A DNA stretch of 5,664 nucleotides from a virus: IMG/VR virus record IMGVR_UViG_3300045988_001410, positions 1 to 5,664 of that record; one strand, written 5' to 3'. Both the position numbers and the translations under genes were made by a program. Each line of letters opens with the position of its first letter. Position 1 is the first letter of the stretch. Positions 1 through 5,664 of this stretch are shown one piece after another. The notes under the pieces were generated by a model. The model ran no database searches, had not been told where the DNA came from, and was given only the letters and a program-made list of their open reading frames with translations.

Positions 1-55
1 TGCCATCCATATAGAATCATGTGGTAATGTGGCCGTGCTGTCTGTTCTCCGTATT
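1..55. repeat. Terminal direct repeat, 55 nt, identical to 5610..5664. It is the overlap of a circular assembly, giving a genome unit of 5609 nt.
   Basis: By direct comparison, tgccatccatatagaatcatgtggtaatgtggccgtgctgtctgttctccgtatt occurs at both ends of the window. The rep reading frame is continuous across the implied junction. Confidence 0.95.
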
Positions 56-386
56 CTCCTGCTACAAAATAGCGTAATTTGCCCCTATAAGCCTTTCTGA
101 GGCGTTTTAAGAATTTTTGAACGTCAGTATATAGTAACGTTTGAACGCTTTCAGGGCGCTTCTCTCCCGGCTTCCAGACGTATTGTACTTTTCGCATGAT
201 TTCGCCTGTGTTTACTATCATGCCTGGCACATGGTCATCGTCATAGGTTAGTGTTATAAACCAAACTTCTTCTCTTGGATAGTCTCGTGCTTCTAATTCT
301 ATTCGTGTTGTCCAGTCTTCCCTTTGTCTAATTCTGCATCCGATGCATTGCCCGCATGGTATCAACATGACATCTTTTCTATACAT
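1..386 (-). CDS. VP4: Replication initiator protein VP4 (HUH rolling-circle endonuclease), N-terminal 128 codons. It continues across the circular junction into 5609..5099, for 298 aa in total.
   Basis: Hand translation from the ATG at 386..384 gives MYRKDVMLIPCGQCIGCRIRQREDWTTRIELEARDYPREEVWFITLTYDDDHVPGM...RYFVAGEYGEQTARPHYHMILYGW. It carries PCGxCxxCR, the FITLTY motif 1 and the HYH (HUH) motif at 21..29. The frame matches the tracked ORF 5099..5629. No clear SD precedes 386, and an alternative ATG lies at 368. Confidence 0.9.
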   Translation of the reverse strand, partial: MYRKDVMLIPCGQCIGCRIRQREDWTTRIELEARDYPREEVWFITLTYDDDHVPGMIVNTGEIMRKVQYVWKPGEKRPESVQTLLYTDVQKFLKRLRKAYRGKLRYFVAGEYGEQTARPHYHMILYGW

Positions 387-407
387 CAAATTTTCATACT
401 TTAGCTG

Positions 408-458
408 TTGCCCGCTTATTTCAGAAAAGCGGGCAAGTGAATACACCCGCCCGCTTAT
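408..458 (-). promoter_or_regulatory. Three-part repeat able to form two mutually exclusive hairpins in the VP2-VP4 intergenic space. It is a possible weak terminator or attenuator, or an ssDNA structure.
   Basis: gcccgcttat occurs at 410..419 and 449..458, with an inverted copy aagcgggc at 427..434. Pairing option 1 is 408..417 with 427..436 (10 bp, 9-nt loop). Pairing option 2 is 427..434 with 449..456 (8 bp, 14-nt loop). In minus-strand RNA, option 2 is followed by UUCU, giving GCCCGCUUUUCU. Confidence 0.45.
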
Positions 459-505
459 GTCTTTATTTTCTGGGTTGTACAGCCTTATTAACGGTTTGTA
501 ACAAC

Positions 506-1375
506 TCATTTCAAATAATCGCCTGGCTTTCTCTTTTCTCCGTATGCTCCAGTTTTGTCTTGTGGCTTCATGCTTCTGCTCTGTCCTGCGCCTTGGCTTT
601 TTTCTGGCTTTGTTGTTGCTTTTTCGATTGCTTTGCTTGTGTCGTTTCCGACTTCTGTAAGTGCTTTTTGCAGTCCGTATGGCGTCATGTGTGTTGAGCT
701 TAGCATCTGCTGCCAGCTCTCTGCAGCATTGTACCAGTCACTTTTGCTCCAGCTTGAACTAGAGTATGCGTTTGGTACAAATCCTCCGCTTCGGCTAACT
801 CCTAGTGCGCTGCTGCTTGCAAGTCCCATACTTGCACCGCTGATTGTGCCGGCGCTTCCGCCCGGTGTGCTTGCTCCCCCATTTGAGAATGCTAGGATAG
901 GGTTAAGCCCCGCTTTTCGCATGTCCTCAACGGCTCGCTGGTATGCTGTGTTTGACATGTGTTCCTGCCATTCACGGTTTGCTAGTGCTTCTGCACTGTT
1001 GTAGTTCATTGCTACGCTGTTTTCAATGTGGTTGTATACGCCTTGCATGATTGCTTGTAAGGTGTTGTAACCCATTTGTTTAAGCATGCTTTGACTGTTG
1101 TATTTACCTTGCATGGCTGCTTCTTGCCCTTGGTATGCGTATGCCTGTTTTAGCCAGTCGTTGACCTGTTGCACGTTTGTGCCGGCTTGACTTCCGCTTT
1201 CCGAGTGTCCGCCTCCTTGGCTTGTGCTGCCTCCGCTGCTTTGGCTATTGCCTGTCTGTCCCCATCCGCCAAACGCTCCGGCTACGTTTTTAGCTGCTCC
1301 TGCAACAGTTCCGATTGTGTTTGCTACGTTTCCCGCTACGTTTAGCGCTGTTAAGAATCTTGATAATGCGCCCAT
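506..1375 (-). CDS. VP2: DNA pilot / minor capsid protein VP2 (289 aa)
   Basis: The tracked ORF lies immediately downstream of VP1. Gly/Ser/Ala-rich low-complexity arms flank a conserved-looking core, NREWQEHMSNTAYQRAVEDMRKAGLNPILAF, which is typical of gokushovirus VP2. Confidence 0.85.
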   Translation of the reverse strand: MGALSRFLTALNVAGNVANTIGTVAGAAKNVAGAFGGWGQTGNSQSSGGSTSQGGGHSESGSQAGTNVQQVNDWLKQAYAYQGQEAAMQGKYNSQSMLKQMGYNTLQAIMQGVYNHIENSVAMNYNSAEALANREWQEHMSNTAYQRAVEDMRKAGLNPILAFSNGGASTPGGSAGTISGASMGLASSSALGVSRSGGFVPNAYSSSSWSKSDWYNAAESWQQMLSSTHMTPYGLQKALTEVGNDTSKAIEKATTKPEKSQGAGQSRSMKPQDKTGAYGEKRKPGDYLK

Positions 1376-1403
1376 TTAAAAATAGCCCGGATTTCTCCGG
1401 GCT
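1376..1403 (-). terminator. Rho-independent-terminator-like hairpin between the VP1 stop and the VP2 start
   Basis: The minus strand reads TAA GAAAGGAGGA AGCCCGGA GAAA TCCGGGCT ATTTTTAA ATG. This is a perfect 8-bp GC-rich stem (1384..1391 with 1396..1403), a GAAA tetraloop and a 5-T run (1376..1383) that abuts the VP2 ATG at 1375. The SD AAGGAGGA (1404..1411) lies upstream of the hairpin. Confidence 0.65.
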
Positions 1404-1413
1404 TCCTCCTTTC

Positions 1414-3093
1414 TTACAGTTTGTACAAGCCCGGTACGCTGTACAACGGCATCCGTCTTGTGGTTGCGTTTGCTATGCGGATCGCACCGAAAAATTGTGG
1501 CTCATTCTGGACGATTAACGTTCTTGCGATTTCTTCTTTTCCTTCTTTCATCCAGCCTTGTGACAGTGTCGGTGCGTTTGAATATTTGTCTGCATAGTGC
1601 CAGAAGTCTAATGTTCCTGTTGCATTGCTTCGCATTTTGCCGGATACCCGATTAGGCTTCATTCGGTAGTCTGCCCATGCTTCTTGGTATCCGAACGTTT
1701 CCTCATCCGTTGCATCGCCGGTTAACATGATTTCCTTCTTTTTTACCGGTTGCTCGCCCAGATTTGCAAACTGCGGTACATAGTAGTCCAGTCTGTCTTT
1801 TCGACTCCAGAAACGCTCCAAGCCTTGCTGGTAACTGTGATTGTGTCGTACACAACATACACCGATTATAAAGCCGTGCTCTTCAAATGATTTGGTAAAG
1901 CTGCTTTCGTTGATTGGCGTCACTGACATTGCGCCGGTTTCACCGATAGGCGTATCTTCTTGGCCCTGCTGTCCGCTTGTCTGTACAATCTGGTTGATAT
2001 TGATATGGTATCTGCCACCGCCAAGATATTCCGGCACTTGTACGGTTTTATCACTGATAACCACGTCCCACAGCGCCTGTACTTGTTCACGGTAACGGCT
2101 GCCACCTCTTGCCAGTGCTTCGTAGTATTGCTGTACTGCTACGGCTTTACGTAAGTCGTTGATGGTTGCTGCAGTTGTGTTGCTTAGGTTTGCGCCTAAA
2201 TAAGCCGTGTCGTCTACTTGTGCTGACGAGCTTGCGCTGCCTACTAATAGCCCATATCCTTTGTATTTTTCGTTTTGACTGTTTCCGATATGTGGCGCAA
2301 GTGCGTGTCCGCTTAGTGTCTGGTTCAAGAAGATTTCTTTGCGTCCCGTTGCCGTTTCAAACTCTTTTAGTGCTGTGTCTTTATACAATCCAACCGGTGC
2401 ATTACCAGTCAACGGCAGTGACGCTTCCGGCCCGCGCTGTGGATAAGGTAGGCAGCTTGTAAAGTAGTCGTGGAACTTATTTACAGGTAAGCATCGCCCA
2501 CCTGCAATTGCATTTTGCAGCATATCGTCAATATTTGCGCTTCTGTCTACGTAGGCTATGTCACTATCGTCTGTTTTGATTACTGCTGCGTTATCTACGT
2601 TTTCATCCCGGAAGTATTCGTTCCATATTTTTACGTATGCCCTGATAGGTAGTGCGTTGACACTGAAACTCTTTTTTACTTTTGTGGGCACTCCCATATA
2701 ATCTAGGATGCTTTCCTCTCTCGGTAGCCCTTCGTTTTCTGTGCCATTTATTTTAATTTCCGGCACTTTGTAATTTTTTACCGGCATCCATGGCTTATCT
2801 TCGACTTCTCCCATGAACTGTTTGAAATTATCCCACAGGATTCTGTTTGGACAGTAGAAGTAGTAGAAGTCGATGAATGCATCGTCGAAAACAGGATACT
2901 TTGGCGTCGTCATTCGGATGATTGCTGCTGTATTTACGTTGAATGTATCGCCTGGCAATACCTCGTCAACATAGAATGGAATCAGTTTGCCGGAATCGAA
3001 TGTCGTGAGAATTGTCTGGTCACGGTTGAATCGTGTTCGGCTTGCTTTCATTTCTGGAATTTGGTTGAAGTGCCGTTCATTGTTTCGGTTCAC
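1414..3093 (-). CDS. VP1: Major capsid protein VP1 (F-like jelly-roll capsid, 559 aa), with a GTG start
   Basis: This is the largest ORF. Its N-terminus, FNQIPEMKASRTRFNRDQTILTTFDSGKLIPFYVDEVLPGDTF, is characteristic of Microviridae capsid proteins. The start codon is GTG (complement of cac at 3091..3093), preceded by AAAGGAGGAAGAAAA. It overlaps the VP3 stop as GTGA. Confidence 0.93.
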   Translation of the reverse strand: MNRNNERHFNQIPEMKASRTRFNRDQTILTTFDSGKLIPFYVDEVLPGDTFNVNTAAIIRMTTPKYPVFDDAFIDFYYFYCPNRILWDNFKQFMGEVEDKPWMPVKNYKVPEIKINGTENEGLPREESILDYMGVPTKVKKSFSVNALPIRAYVKIWNEYFRDENVDNAAVIKTDDSDIAYVDRSANIDDMLQNAIAGGRCLPVNKFHDYFTSCLPYPQRGPEASLPLTGNAPVGLYKDTALKEFETATGRKEIFLNQTLSGHALAPHIGNSQNEKYKGYGLLVGSASSSAQVDDTAYLGANLSNTTAATINDLRKAVAVQQYYEALARGGSRYREQVQALWDVVISDKTVQVPEYLGGGRYHININQIVQTSGQQGQEDTPIGETGAMSVTPINESSFTKSFEEHGFIIGVCCVRHNHSYQQGLERFWSRKDRLDYYVPQFANLGEQPVKKKEIMLTGDATDEETFGYQEAWADYRMKPNRVSGKMRSNATGTLDFWHYADKYSNAPTLSQGWMKEGKEEIARTLIVQNEPQFFGAIRIANATTRRMPLYSVPGLYKL

Positions 3094-3488
3094 TTTTCTT
3101 CCTCCTTTGCTTTAGGTTCTATTGCTGGTTCTTCTTTTGCTGCTTTCTGCAGTTCTTCCAGCTTCATGGCGTTTGCCTGTGCTGTTGCAATCATGCGATG
3201 ATATTCGTGAATGTTCTGCGGAAATTCGGTGATATCAACTTCTGTTCCTTCCAGTGCTCCCTGTGACAGACTTTTCAGAAATTGCGGGTCAAAGCTCGCT
3301 TTTCTTACAATGTTTTTGATATCGCATTCGTCTGAATAGCTTTCGATTTCCTGTTGGATGTCGATTGGTTCGGTTTCTTGTAGCACTTCTTCGTTTTTCT
3401 CGTTTTTTGTCCAGACGTATTGTTTTCGGAGTGTATCTCCTGATGCCGAAAAGAAGGGCTCTCGCCCTTCTTCGTATCGTTTATTCAT
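3090..3488 (-). CDS. VP3: Internal scaffolding protein VP3 (132 aa from the ATG at 3488; the track extends it to 3542)
   Basis: It lies directly upstream of VP1. It is acidic, with the motif SYSDECDIKNIVRKASFDPQFL, which resembles the ECDINNIV block of gokushovirus VP3. The ATG at 3488 has a GGGAGGG SD 9 nt upstream and overlaps the VP5 stop as ATGAATAA. The ATG at 3542 has no SD. Confidence 0.8.
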   Translation of the reverse strand: MNKRYEEGREPFFSASGDTLRKQYVWTKNEKNEEVLQETEPIDIQQEIESYSDECDIKNIVRKASFDPQFLKSLSQGALEGTEVDITEFPQNIHEYHRMIATAQANAMKLEELQKAAKEEPAIEPKAKEEEK

Positions 3489-3720
3489 GTGGCTTGCCCT
3501 CCCAAATTTTCTCTTTCCAGTTCTGGAAAAGTCCCGTCTCATCTTCGAATTCTGCCAGTTTGTAACCTGTGTAGTCCTGCGGACTCTGCCCGATGAAGGT
3601 CTTTTCGTCCTTTGCCATTACGTTGCACATACGTGCGAACGTTGCATCGTTTTTGCTTTCGCCTACCCATGCATAGCATTTTGCTACATCGTCCCAGATG
3701 CCATAATAGTTGTGTTTCAT
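3481..3720 (-). CDS. VP5: VP5-like non-structural protein (79 aa)
   Basis: The pattern MKHNYYGIWDDVAKCYAWVGES..ATFARMC....PQDYTGYKLAEFEDETGLF matches my recollection of gokushovirus VP5 (N-terminal YD.ka..f, then P.D..L..iG.fDd.tG). The SD AAAGGAA lies 8 nt upstream. Confidence 0.7.
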   Translation of the reverse strand: MKHNYYGIWDDVAKCYAWVGESKNDATFARMCNVMAKDEKTFIGQSPQDYTGYKLAEFEDETGLFQNWKEKIWEGKPHE

Positions 3721-3737
3721 TGTTTTGATTCCTTTCT

Positions 3738-3839
3738 TTACATCCGGATTCCACCGCGCATAGGTTTCTGACTGAGGTTGATAGTTTTGGTCTTTCGTGC
3801 GGTTACGTTGAACATACGGCGGTCTTTTGTACCGTTCAT
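3738..3839 (-). CDS. Small, highly basic DNA-binding/packaging protein, J-like / gokushovirus ORF8(VP8)-like (33 aa). It is not in the supplied ORF track.
   Basis: Hand translation gives MNGTKDRRMFNVTARKTKTINLSQKPMRGGIRM*, with 9 K/R against 1 acidic residue. The C-terminal PMRGGIRM resembles the RGGxR(F/L) ends I recall for SpV4 and Chlamydia-phage ORF8. It starts 4 nt after the upstream stop, and its own stop is followed directly by the VP5 SD. No strong SD of its own. Confidence 0.6.
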   Translation of the reverse strand: MNGTKDRRMFNVTARKTKTINLSQKPMRGGIRM

Positions 3840-3843
3840 TTTC

Positions 3844-4068
3844 TTACGATATGCCATTATTGTTCTCCCTTTTCATTAATTCTAATTCGATGTTGTTTGC
3901 AAAGCTTTTCATTTGCCAAATTTCGTCTATTAGCCTTTTAGCATCTTCGATTTTTGACACTTTTTTAATCATTTTGTAACTTCCATCAATTTCTTTGTAT
4001 TTTCGTTCGAGTAGAATCTCTAGTGCTTCTGTGGTCTGGTCTCTTACGTTCCATGTTTTGTGCATCAT
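3844..4068 (-). CDS. Hypothetical protein, 74 aa, predicted helical and charged, with no TM segment
   Basis: The tracked ORF has the SD AAGGAG 6 nt upstream of its ATG, embedded in the end of the preceding ORF (GAAAAGGAGTAAACCATGATG). I recognise no motif. Confidence 0.6.
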   Translation of the reverse strand: MMHKTWNVRDQTTEALEILLERKYKEIDGSYKMIKKVSKIEDAKRLIDEIWQMKSFANNIELELMKRENNNGIS

Positions 4069-4071
4069 GGT

Positions 4072-4194
4072 TTACTCCTTTTCGCTTTCGTTGATGCTAT
4101 CATGCAGTGCATGATAGATTTCGTCAAGCTTTTCGAGAATCTGCATCATAATCCGGATTGCCTGCTTGACGTCTTTAATAGAAATCAGTGCCAT
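4072..4194 (-). CDS. Hypothetical small protein, 40 aa (MALISIKDVKQAIRIMMQILEKLDEIYHALHDSINESEKE). The tracked 71-aa form starts at 4287, inside the peptidase gene.
   Basis: The ATG at 4194..4192 lies 1 nt after the peptidase TAA (4196..4198) and is preceded by AAGGGGG. The longer start at 4287 has no SD and would overlap the peptidase by 92 nt. Confidence 0.45.
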   Translation of the reverse strand: MALISIKDVKQAIRIMMQILEKLDEIYHALHDSINESEKE

Positions 4195-4195
4195 T

Positions 4196-4588
4196 TTATA
4201 CCCCCTTTCTATATTTGCTGGTTCGTACATCGAAGTGTACCCAACTTCTGTATACGATAATGCCACATTCATCCGGTACAATTTCATTCAGTATGTTGGC
4301 TATCTGTTTCGGTGTCATTCCATTTATTCGGATGTCTGCTGCCATACCGCGCATGTGGTAGCTATATTTTGCTCCATTACATTTTTTGTTCCACTCCGGT
4401 GTTCTGTATCCGCTGGTGATAATTACCGGTTTTCCTAGTTTGCATCTTAGGATGTCCAGAACGGTATATAAGTAGTCGTCTATGAACACTACTGGACTTC
4501 CGTCTTTGCAAGCAAATTCTTTTACTTTGAAGTGTTTTGCAAGTTGTATATTTCCGTCAGTTTCTACAATGTAGCTTTTAATGCTCAT
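4196..4588 (-). CDS. Zinc D-Ala-D-Ala-carboxypeptidase-fold peptidase, M15 family (M15A / Peptidase_M15_3-like), a putative peptidoglycan hydrolase or lysin (130 aa)
   Basis: The sequence ...FKVKEFACKDGS...VIITSGYRTPEWNKKCNGAKYSYHMRGMAADI...WVHFDVR fits SGYR, the SxHxxGxAxD zinc-binding block and the distal H.D. The ATG at 4588 has the SD GAGGT 7 nt upstream. The tracked TTG at 4642 is part of the promoter -35 hexamer. Confidence 0.85.
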   Translation of the reverse strand: MSIKSYIVETDGNIQLAKHFKVKEFACKDGSPVVFIDDYLYTVLDILRCKLGKPVIITSGYRTPEWNKKCNGAKYSYHMRGMAADIRINGMTPKQIANILNEIVPDECGIIVYRSWVHFDVRTSKYRKGV

Positions 4589-4613
4589 GGCCGTTACCTC
4601 ACTTTTTGTTTTG

Positions 4614-4660
4614 ATAATATCATTTTTTTTGTCGCTTGTCAATTGTTTTTTGTTTTGAAT
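4614..4660 (-). promoter_or_regulatory. Near-consensus sigma70-type promoter (UP-like A-tract, -35, extended -10) driving the peptidase and downstream genes
   Basis: The minus strand reads ATTCAAAACAAAAAACAA TTGACA AGCGACAAAAAAAATGA TATTAT CAAAACAAAAAGTGAGGTAACGGCC ATG. The -35 TTGACA is at 4642..4637, the spacer is 17 nt, the extended TG is at 4622..4621, and the -10 TATTAT is at 4619..4614. Confidence 0.75.
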
Positions 4661-4674
4661 GGCGCTTTAGCGCC
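4661..4674. repeat. Short hairpin ggcgc-ttta-gcgcc, the first copy of the 10-mer CGCTTTAGCG
   Basis: A 5-bp stem with a 4-nt loop. The 10-mer cgctttagcg (4663..4672) recurs at 4868..4877. Confidence 0.6.
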
Positions 4675-4733
4675 TTGCCGTGCGTAGCGTATGCGGAGCT
4701 CGGCCTATCCATTCCTTGTAAGCGCTGTGCGCG

Positions 4734-4908
4734 TTTTCAACACTTTCAACACTTTCAACAGGTTTTCCACAAAATGTTGCACAATGATTTTCGTCATTTT
4801 GACAGACTTTCAACAATTCAACAAGTTTTTAACAAAACTTTTAACAGTGATTTTCTTCTTTTATTTACGCTTTAGCGTTAAATTTTAGCACTTTTCAACT
4901 TTTCCACA
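4734..4908. repeat. Array of about 12 degenerate 8-9-bp repeats (T-tract + CAACA/TAACA/CCACA/TGACA), including a 3x tandem 9-mer. Candidate iterons and/or intrinsically curved DNA.
   Basis: Copies: TTTTCAACA 4734, CTTTCAACA 4743, 4752 and 4807, TTTTCCACA 4763 and 4900, (weak) GTTGCACA 4776, ATTTTGACA 4796, ATTCAACA 4816, TTTTTAACA 4826, CTTTTAACA 4838, CTTTTCAAC 4891. Spacings between adjacent copies within each cluster are 9-13 bp; the clusters (4734..4783, 4796..4846, 4891..4908) are separated by longer gaps. Confidence 0.8.
4867..4878. repeat. Second CGCTTTAGCG hairpin (acgc-ttta-gcgt)
   Basis: The same 10-mer as 4663..4672. The two copies bracket the main block of the repeat array. Confidence 0.55.
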
Positions 4909-4943
4909 GCCTCTACTACTACTCCTACAACAAGTTAATATTA

Positions 4944-4990
4944 TATCGCGCGTGCGCGCGTGCGCGCTATCGCGCGTGCGTGCTATCGCG
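4944..4990. repeat. CpG-rich alternating pyrimidine-purine (CG/TG) tract punctuated by three TATCGCG units
   Basis: The tract reads tatcgcgcgtgcgcgcgtgcgcgc tatcgcgcgtgcgtgc tatcgcg. tatcgcgcgtgcg is repeated exactly at 4944..4956 and 4968..4980, with a third tatcgcg at 4984..4990. Uninterrupted Py-Pu alternation runs over 4947..4967 and 4971..4983. Confidence 0.85.
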
Positions 4991-5045
4991 AATTAGATTA
5001 TTTGATAGACTGGATAGTGTGATACATGGAGACTTTAGACGACAT

Positions 5046-5081
5046 CTAGCCCAGTTCCTTACTTGATAGGAACTGGGCTAG
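5046..5081. repeat. Perfect 14-bp inverted repeat with an 8-nt loop, 18 nt beyond the VP4 stop
   Basis: ctagcccagttcct (5046..5059), loop tacttgat (5060..5067), aggaactgggctag (5068..5081). No T-run follows on either strand. Confidence 0.9.
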
Positions 5082-5082
5082 G

Positions 5083-5108
5083 TGACACTATGACACTGTT
5101 AAAGTGTC
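5083..5108. repeat. GACACT repeats: two direct TGACACT copies plus one inverted copy forming a hairpin around the VP4 stop codon
   Basis: tgacact occurs at 5083..5089 and 5091..5097. gacact (5092..5097) pairs with agtgtc (5103..5108) across the loop gttaa, which contains the TAA complement (5099..5101). Confidence 0.7.
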
Positions 5109-5664
5109 CCCTTTTTTTTCATCTGCTTCTTTATCACCCTTTCTTTTGTTTTACATTGTTCTGCGAAGTCTGCGTTTTCATACTTTAGCCTGTTTTCTGC
5201 GATTGCAGCTGCCTGCCTGTTCTGTTTAATTCTCCATAACCTTTGTGGGTTTTCAGCTTCCATCATTTTTTCATAATAGCGTGGAATTTGTGCGCGTTTG
5301 CCGTTTGTGCATTGGATATACCCTTGTTTCCATATCTCTGCTTTGTGTTCTTGATAGTAGTGATCTCCTAAGCCTGGTTTAAGGCTCATACATGCGAATG
5401 GCTTTGTTTGTCCTAGTTCATAGTATTCGTTTGCTTTTGCTCCGTCTATCTCGTACATTTTTTTTGTTACATATCCTGCAACATATCTATATGTTGCGGG
5501 CACTGCTTGCGCTATCTGTATTTGACCCATGCCCCATAGGTTTTCTAGCCACTTACTTGTGAAGTATCCGTTGTGTTGTATCTTGTATAGGTGCTTTAGG
5601 TCTGTTGGTTGCCATCCATATAGAATCATGTGGTAATGTGGCCGTGCTGTCTGTTCTCCGTATT
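5099..5664 (-). CDS. VP4: Replication initiator protein VP4, C-terminal part. Positions 5610..5664 duplicate 1..55, and the true continuation of 1..386 is 5609..5099.
   Basis: The tracked ORF contains RYVAGYVTKK, with Tyr codons at 5485..5483 and 5473..5471. This is the YxxxY catalytic pair, as in phiX174 gpA YVAKYVNKK. It is preceded by HYHMILYGW, and the TAA stop is at 5099..5101. Confidence 0.92.
   Translation of the reverse strand, partial: YGEQTARPHYHMILYGWQPTDLKHLYKIQHNGYFTSKWLENLWGMGQIQIAQAVPATYRYVAGYVTKKMYEIDGAKANEYYELGQTKPFACMSLKPGLGDHYYQEHKAEIWKQGYIQCTNGKRAQIPRYYEKMMEAENPQRLWRIKQNRQAAAIAENRLKYENADFAEQCKTKERVIKKQMKKKGTL
5610..5664. repeat. Second copy of the 55-nt terminal repeat (see 1..55)
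   Basis: An exact match to 1..55. Confidence 0.95.

Follow-up and report, generated by a model that had tools for sequence, protein, structure and literature searches.

Analysis of a 5,664-nucleotide stretch of viral DNA (IMG/VR record IMGVR_UViG_3300045988_001410, positions 1 to 5,664; hereafter the window, meaning the whole stretch) revealed a 213-bp cassette at positions 4734 to 4946 that very probably represents an array of DnaA boxes joined to a basal unwinding system (BUS), an identity to which we assign a probability of roughly 0.9. The virus is a gokushovirus and the window is a terminally redundant copy of its circular 5,609-bp genome, with bases 1-55 recurring as 5610-5664; the cassette sits in the sole long non-coding stretch of that genome (4643-5098), which on the coding strand spans from the rep stop codon to a promoter. 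Its motif is that of host chromosomal origins (oriC), its layout is theirs as well, it is conserved among relatives, it occurs independently of orientation and its duplex stability is low. That the cassette actually unwinds or functions as an origin is a more modest proposition, which these features make reasonably likely.

The repeat array and its match to host chromosomal origins

A preliminary description of this stretch had pointed to about 12 repeats lying in three clusters and in one orientation, and our counts bear this out, with the clusters at the places given there. The window contains 14 copies of the unit TTTCAACA at ≤1 mismatch; 10 of these fall within 4735-4908, 10/10 of them on the plus strand, and two degenerate units, TGTTGCACA (4775-4783) and ATTTTGACA (4796-4804), raise the array total to about 12. 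Base composition would predict 0.08-0.26 such units per 175 nt rather than the 10 observed, and in 20,000 shuffles of the array the count never rose above 4. The three exact copies of one motif reported earlier are those of CTTTCAACA at 4743, 4752 and 4807. Successive units are spaced at 9, 9 and 11 bp, then 44, then 8, 11 and 12, then 54, and finally 8 bp, and Tandem Repeats Finder placed a 63-bp higher-order repeat at 4742-4862. Fourier analysis of a TTT indicator revealed one sharp peak at 10.5 bp that was reached by 0 of 2,000 shuffles, such that the units share one helix face throughout all three clusters; the phasing described earlier is thus real, and the part of that description that confined it to the individual clusters is replaced by phasing of the whole array. 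The parts of the cassette are as follows.

4734..4946, plus strand: the whole cassette, a putative oriC-like DnaA-box array with basal unwinding system, 213 bp, delimited by the unit of inversion and by conservation across 143 modules
4734..4771, plus strand: box cluster 1, TTTTCAACA (4734), CTTTCAACA (4743), CTTTCAACA (4752) and TTTTCCACA (4763), all head-to-tail, start-to-start distances 9, 9 and 11 bp
4775..4783, plus strand: TGTTGCACA, a weak box-like site, 1 mismatch from the relaxed DnaA-box consensus TTWTNCACA
4796..4804, plus strand: ATTTTGACA, a degenerate box-like unit and the weakest array member, mostly ATTTTGACG in relatives
4807..4846, plus strand: box cluster 2, CTTTCAACA (4807), AATTCAACA (4815), TTTTTAACA (4826) and CTTTTAACA (4838)
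4892..4908, plus strand: tandem box pair, TTTTCAACT (4892-4900) and TTTTCCACA (4900-4908), the second box 1 mismatch from TTATCCACA
4909..4912, plus strand: spacer GCCT, 4 bp, at the position of the GC cluster
4913..4933, plus strand: putative DnaA-trio tract CTA CTA CTA CTC CTA (4913-4927), then CAA CAA (4928-4933)
4934..4946, plus strand: AT-rich GTTAATATTATAT, 13 bp, candidate DNA unwinding element

To place these units, we scanned 185,579 bacterial species, one genome each, for three closely spaced TTTCAACA units, which returned at least 120 loci. Among the 120 matches listed, 46 belonged to Oscillospiraceae, Ruminococcus or other Clostridia, and a DnaA homologue adjoined the triple match in 10. 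The dnaA-dnaN intergenic regions of nine of those 10 loci were analysed, all nine from Oscillospiraceae, Ruminococcus or unclassified Clostridia, and these nine include most of the box-richest loci among the matches listed (Pfam confirmed DnaA, DnaN and RecF on one of them, L118). Boxes of the TTTTCAACA type reached 11-53 per kb in the nine dnaA-dnaN regions versus 0.6-2.9 per kb in their flanks, with canonical TTATCCACA-type boxes in the same nine regions at only 0-7 per kb. The tandem pattern of box cluster 1 is also found in host oriCs. Across an alignment of 143 distinct phage modules, the box at 4826 is TTTTCAACA in 92 and the canonical TTATCCACA in 19, and TTTTCCACA, present in two copies in the window, is 1 mismatch from TTATCCACA.

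Because the motif fills the dnaA-dnaN origins of Oscillospiraceae and Ruminococcus, because TTATCCACA substitutes for it at 4826 and because TTTTCCACA is near consensus, the units are best read as the TTTTCAACA/TTTTCCACA variant of the DnaA box used by these bacteria. The canonical TTATCCACA, at ≤2 mismatches, occurs 15 times in the window against an expectation of 15.4 and is not enriched, so that only a variant-aware search reveals the signal. At the weak site, GTTGCACAA (4776-4784, one base to the right of TGTTGCACA) is identical in 87 of the 143 modules, and we infer that TGTTGCACA is a DnaA box. Multimeric protein-binding sites on one helix face had been suggested before, with a host factor among the options, and the motif match gives that suggestion a probable name, host DnaA.

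The host DnaA proteins themselves offer a possible counterpart to the box variant. In each of the nine (L118, L021, L026, L036, L049, L051, L063, L074 and L102) the sequence reads R(D/N)HST, in a region that aligns with RDHTT of the solved DnaA structures from B. subtilis, M. tuberculosis, Aquifex and E. coli, and this Thr-to-Ser change may accompany the TTTTCAACA variant. Aligned to host oriCs by blastn, the cassette showed 62-73% identity that was driven by the repeats, which is insufficient for a claim of direct capture from a host, and that origin for it was set aside. The conserved triple arrangement TTTCAACAC TTTCAACAGAG TTTTCAACA also occurs beyond oriC in Oscillospiraceae (L114 1857-1886, L054 3908-3936, L085 and L127), with one copy directly upstream of mraZ (L114) and one within a mutL reading frame; these copies may be DnaA-regulated sites.

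Layout of the cassette terminus

The element does not end with the last box at 4908, where it had first been drawn, but continues to 4946, first with a spacer and then with trios and an AT-rich segment (together 4913-4946), such that the window reads, in order, TTTTCAACT TTTCCACA GCCT CTACTACTACTCCTA CAACAA GTTAATATTATAT. On the minus strand, 4913-4927 reads 3'-GAT GAT GAT GAG GAT-5', which amounts to five consecutive (.A.) trios with the three next to the box being GAT, the consensus of DnaA-trios. Nearest-neighbor free energies computed over the 5,609-bp genome placed its least stable 13-mer at 4935-4947 and its least stable 20-mer at 4926-4945.

Published search rules for the BUS call for a box with ≤2 mismatches to the species box or to TTATCCACA, a box-to-first-trio spacer of 0-16 bp and at least three consecutive (.A.) trios, and in a typical BUS a second box stands in tandem and is followed by a GC-rich gap averaging 4 bp, with 10-13 bp from the upstream box (PMC8287927). 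The trios lie opposite the strand that reads 5'-TTATCCACA-3', and 3'-GAT-5' is favored beside the box (PMC8287927); in the B. subtilis oriC, the strand opposite the trios reads 5'-CTACTATTACTTCTACTA-3' (PMC10201434). Set against these rules, the box at 4900-4908, TTTTCCACA, has 1 mismatch to TTATCCACA, the GCCT gap is 4 bp with 12 bp between the upstream box and the first trio, and the trios at 4913-4927 run in the same orientation as those in host oriCs. The unstable segment follows at 4935-4947 (or 4926-4945 for the 20-mer), though the AT-rich segment itself is short at 13 bp.

The host origins close in the same way. At the end of 7/9 of them, a box or box pair is followed across 4 bp (CCCC, GCCC or TACC) by a CTA-repeat tract (for example CTACTACTACTACTA, and CTACTACGACTACTAATA in L118) and then by an AT-rich stretch, and the box pair in which host oriCs terminate is the one at 4892-4908 of the window. 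A spacer of 4 bp between box and trios is shared by most phage modules and by six of the nine host oriCs, and the trio and AT-rich tracts are retained by nearly all relatives examined, the exceptions being L265 and L278, in which box clusters 1-2 are kept but nothing of the terminus (box pair, trios and AT-rich segment) is present. An origin of replication or packaging had been among the functions first proposed for the array. The oriC-type layout supports the replication half of that proposal, the cassette being probably part of an origin, and no evidence points to packaging.

Conservation, inversion and spread of the cassette

Comparison with relatives had been set beforehand as the test of whether the repeats matter, and the repeats proved to be conserved. 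Among 80 IMG/VR relatives picked on VP1 alone (72-82% amino-acid identity) and blind to the array, 71 carry at least 6 boxes within 200 bp, versus a background of 0.23, and of the nine without an array six are contigs of ≤5.1 kb. In the alignment of the 143 modules, box columns are 90-99% conserved and spacers 40-70%. A blastn search with the non-coding region matched 56 phage records, and for several GenBank microviruses (H19-H24) this region is the sole part of the genome that megablast still aligns. Three open reading frames (ORFs) cross the array, at 4636-4875 (+), 4691-4888 (+) and 4667-4816 (-); we treated them as by-products of the repeat ('FNTFNTFN') on the basis of the box-versus-spacer conservation and of the inversion of the cassette described below.

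A survey of 133 complete relatives revealed that the cassette changes both orientation and position. In 113 of them it lies between VP4 and the peptidase M15 gene or a small ORF, with the box strand opposite the genes as in the window, while 16 have it between VP2 and VP4 in the other orientation, and the remaining 4 (L249, L271, L320 and L208) have the exact 4734-4946 segment inverted between unchanged flanks. On the side facing rep the flank is a CG-rich tract, and toward the promoter it is 'acgcgcacagcgct'.

4947..4990, no strand assigned: CG-rich tract of alternating purines and pyrimidines, (CGCGCGTG)n, period 16 bp, flanking the cassette outside the inverted unit

This tract is conserved on the rep side in both VP4-M15 orientation classes, directly abuts the AT-rich end and marks one inversion breakpoint; it was not seen beside the cassette in those VP2-VP4 genomes whose sequence was inspected. 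Its alternating composition is predicted to make it prone to Z-DNA or cruciform formation. The presence of the cassette in both orientations and at two positions points to the double-stranded replicative form as its most likely site of action, and this independence of orientation argues against a signal specific to the packaged strand, against a Rep nick site within the cassette and against a promoter element that depends on distance. The earlier proposal that the array is an upstream activator of the strong promoter is therefore not upheld, given 4 genomes with the cassette inverted between the same flanks and 16 with it in the VP2-VP4 position.

The element also extends beyond microviruses. 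A 39-kb siphovirus-like gut-metagenome contig in IMG/VR (L204) possesses the same array together with a box-CCCC-CTACTACTA-AT-rich element, with 14 TTTCAACA boxes and TTTCAACC GCCC CTACTACTA TAAATATAATAT at about 1800-1980 on its minus strand, downstream of a tail module whose genes encode Dit, a Gp37-like protein and a tape-measure-like protein; the contig has no VP4. The host-origin mimic is thus not limited to microviruses, and an origin function on mobile elements of these hosts becomes more plausible. An IMG/VR scan for TTATCCACA followed by 2-8 nt and CTACTACTA gave 41 matches including one microvirus (L360), which lacks the array, so that this test did not find the module in other microvirus clades. 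In the plasmid collection there was no DNA match to the cassette, and a VP1 protein search of the same collection returned only a distant gokushovirus prophage with 43% identity and no box array. That prophage (L325; Pusillibacter faecalis pMM59_01, 233063-238089) is integrated next to xerC in an Oscillospiraceae isolate, on a replicon of 504 kb. Its presence there supports Oscillospiraceae as hosts of gokushoviruses and hints that integration and an origin mimic are perhaps alternative routes to persistence.

Proposed function

If the cassette functions as its layout suggests, ATP-DnaA would fill the boxes of the double-stranded replicative form, which follow one another head-to-tail in helical phase, and the DnaA oligomer would grow from the terminal pair of boxes across the 3'-GAT-5' trios before melting the neighboring AT-rich segment. 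Handover to the host helicase-loading pathway (of the DnaD/DnaB/DnaI-DnaC type in Bacillota) would follow, such that the phage duplex would be replicated from a host-controlled origin alongside, or ahead of, rolling-circle synthesis by VP4. DnaA binding, unwinding, helicase loading and origin activity of the cassette are thus predictions that we draw from its sequence. A further-reaching version, in which the replicative form would be a DnaA-controlled mini-chromosome with bidirectional theta replication from the host-origin mimic, a plasmid-like carrier state would be tied to host initiation and VP4 would serve only to make progeny single strands, is possible but doubtful.

Several points weigh against assigning the cassette to the DnaA-dependent origins. 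Binding by DnaA, unwinding and firing are deduced steps, and the phage already encodes an HUH rolling-circle initiator in VP4, so that a second origin is not obviously needed. The host is assigned only through motif and layout, and zero microviruses were present in the Oscillospiraceae loci fetched, while host capture and convergent mimicry would be indistinguishable at 62-73% identity. With its 13 bp, the AT-rich segment is short, and it borders directly on a CG-rich tract of very high stability. The two relatives that keep boxes and lack the terminus, L265 and L278, may mean that boxes work without unwinding, or both assemblies may be defective. Finally, trio conservation as read from the 143-module alignment is biased, the modules having been anchored on the trio tract, and its unbiased check comes from the VP1-chosen relatives and from the individual sequences inspected.

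Alternative explanations

The main rival is that the boxes serve as a sink or sensor for DnaA without any firing, either by titrating host DnaA as replicative forms accumulate, which would turn off initiation in the host, or by tying phage expression to DnaA-ATP. With about 12 boxes per genome copy, a high copy number would provide many sites, titration is indifferent to orientation just as the cassette is, and the main promoter follows the array at a distance of 92 bp. Box clusters 1-2 without the trio element in L265 and L278, and triple boxes outside oriC in host genomes too (for example upstream of mraZ in L114), also fit this explanation. However, titration needs neither the trios nor the AT-rich element, yet these are kept in nearly all relatives examined and with a host-like 4-bp spacer, and control of a promoter is hard to square with inversion of the cassette and its relocation between VP2 and VP4. 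We therefore regard a sink or sensor as unlikely, if worth keeping in view.

A second alternative places DnaA on the incoming packaged single strand, where it would assemble and recruit helicase and primase at a complementary-strand origin. The 'A site' hairpin of the ABC primosome, attributed to Masai and Arai, is said to support DnaA-dependent priming of this sort. In the window and in 113/133 genomes, the coding strand, presumed to be the packaged one, bears the 5'-TAG-3' (3'-GAT-5') trio strand that is the single-stranded target of DnaA, whereas in 20/133 genomes the opposite strand is on the coding side. The boxes are all co-oriented, so no hairpin can rebuild a duplex box, and DnaA domain IV requires duplex boxes (PMC10201434). 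Folding of the region as a single strand gave a z-score of -4.1, with the robust structures being a hairpin at 5043-5084 and small hairpins outside the boxes; the same prediction showed no structure across the box array and thus no stable fold over the boxes. Such priming is improbable on these grounds.

The repeats could instead be iterons for a phage protein (VP4/Rep or a small ORF product), forming a rolling-circle origin or an autoregulatory site. They are direct, phased and beside rep, which is how iterons are arranged in geminiviruses, circoviruses and plasmids, and two small ORFs (4287-4072 and 4068-3844) without a family could supply a binding protein. Iterons are repeats specific to their element, whereas this motif and layout recur in chromosomal dnaA-dnaN origins of Clostridia that hold no microvirus genes, and on the siphovirus-like contig without VP4; Rep binding, proposed at first, loses its footing for the former reason. 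A canonical DnaA box substitutes in 19/143 modules, and relative to rep the cassette can face either way, whereas a rolling-circle nick site is strand-specific. The 30-mer of the phiX174 origin (CAACTTGATATTAATAAC..., conserved on the viral strand) has 0 matches at ≤3 mismatches, and because it is absent and the cassette occurs on either strand, a phiX174-type rolling-circle origin was rejected. Iterons for a phage protein are accordingly a highly improbable explanation.

A last alternative is that the repeats bind a different host regulator, or that they are simply curved DNA acting passively as an upstream promoter element. The Spo0A '0A box' is TGTCGAA, and phi29-type phages use 0A boxes for silencing in sporulating cells. 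Although the complementary strand carries TGTTGAA, 1 mismatch from that box, and although T-tracts phased at 10.5 bp stand 92 bp from a strong promoter (curvature is indeed plausible, and looks like a by-product of phased boxes), both versions have very little in their favor, since they do not account for trios set at a constant 4 bp, for a layout like that of oriC or for the interchange with TTATCCACA, since the variable box position has T and G in place of the C of the 0A box, and since neither distance nor direction to the promoter is conserved.

Genomic surroundings

Every gene of the genome lies on the minus strand, in the form of VP4/Rep, peptidase M15, two small ORFs, VP5, VP3, VP1 and VP2, and the nearest GenBank relatives are gut gokushoviruses of humans, pigs and monkeys. 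The features flanking the non-coding region are the following.

Crossing the circle junction, stop at 5099, minus strand: VP4/Rep, HUH rolling-circle initiator
4614..4642, minus strand: near-consensus promoter TTGACA-17-TGnTATTAT with extended -10, predicted to drive peptidase M15 and the genes downstream
4588-4196, minus strand: peptidase M15, the first gene past the promoter, endolysin-like, PHROG 894
4287-4072 and 4068-3844, minus strand: two small ORFs (71 and 74 aa), no family matched

The promoter at 4642-4614 matches 11/12 hexamer positions and has TG ahead of the -10, with the nearest box 92 bp off, and the earlier placement of the array downstream of rep and upstream of a strong promoter, taken in the sense of the coding strand, is confirmed. 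Peptidase M15 is outside the classical microvirus gene set. Rfam gave zero matches in the non-coding region and a single weak match elsewhere (E = 0.74). A terminator-like hairpin followed by T8 lies at window 5092-5120 (+), within the 3' end of rep and antisense to the genes, where it would block transcription from the non-coding region into rep.

The strong hairpin at 5043-5084, just past the rep stop, has a stem of 14-17 bp and, read on the non-coding strand, the loop TACTTGAT. Of 139 related genomes 110 possess it, and its orientation is constant despite inversion of the cassette, with a stem that varies (GTTCC/GGAAC here, GTACC/GGTAC elsewhere) while preserving its pairing. The hairpin contains ACTTGATA, which equals the core 8-mer of the phiX174 origin, yet here the genes are on the other strand. 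A similar hairpin, then GTGACAC, is found at the end of the P. faecalis gokushovirus prophage (L325, about 8830-8875), and the 5043-5084 hairpin could be the actual Rep or Xer-related site.

Significance and comparison with known systems

Textbooks present the Microviridae as phages whose replication is driven by a rolling-circle initiator of their own. If the cassette is what its sequence suggests, a complete host-type module in >140 gokushovirus genomes would provide a second mode of replication or persistence that depends on the host initiator, and this could help explain the upkeep of abundant gut phages in slow-growing anaerobes. Recruitment of host DnaA would be unreported for Microviridae; a full-text literature search gave no account linking DnaA boxes or oriC to microviruses, and no description of this element where DnaA-trios and phages are treated together, with subscription journals mostly uncovered and an earlier report therefore possible. 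Were the mini-chromosome version true as well, it would add a persistence strategy to the lytic growth and Xer-mediated integration of this family. The box variant and layout may also permit host assignment from sequence (Oscillospiraceae/Ruminococcus) for a large clade with uncultured hosts, and a lineage-specific DnaA-box variant, TTTTCAACA, is indicated that goes with R(D/N)HST in host DnaA. As a 213-bp BUS that is apparently portable and invertible among phages, the cassette could supply natural minimal origins for the study of DnaA-trios.

Its closest likeness is to the BUS of chromosomal oriC, as in B. subtilis incC with DnaA boxes 6/7, trios and an AT-rich segment (PMC8287927, PMC10201434), with which the cassette shares head-to-tail boxes, a terminal tandem pair, a GC spacer of about 4 bp, at least three 3'-GAT-5' trios opposite the box strand and a least-stable AT-rich segment beyond. 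The strand complementary to the trios reads CTACTACTACTCCTA in the cassette and CTACTATTACTTCTACTA in B. subtilis, and both the layout and the 4-bp spacer are as in the dnaA-dnaN origins of Oscillospiraceae/Ruminococcus. Unlike oriC, the cassette resides on a 5.6-kb single-stranded DNA phage with its own rolling-circle initiator, is confined to 213 bp with about 12 boxes of the TTTTCAACA variant, and has a 13-bp AT-rich part that abuts a CG-rich tract. It lies between rep (VP4) and peptidase M15 of a microvirus, and this location on a phage without a dnaA/dnaN flank makes it an oriC-like module and not an oriC.

Plasmid and phage origins offer a second comparison. In those of pSC101, F, RK2, R6K and P1 (oriR), 1-4 DnaA boxes accompany iterons bound by a theta-type initiator of the element's own, and it is this initiator that opens the DNA. 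The cassette resembles them as a mobile-element sequence with DnaA boxes beside an AT-rich opening region, and differs in having neither a theta-type initiator nor a second repeat family and in possessing trios; because trios accompany its boxes, DnaA itself would open it. The 30-bp phiX174 origin is a strand-specific sequence within gene A that a phage protein recognizes. Both it and, putatively, the cassette are microvirus replication signals, the cassette being non-coding, present in either orientation and host-origin-like. DnaA-titrating loci such as E. coli datA and the DnaA-box clusters of B. subtilis have no trios or unwinding element and do not fire; like these, the cassette has dense DnaA boxes outside a chromosomal origin, but unlike them it keeps the trios and the predicted unwinding element.

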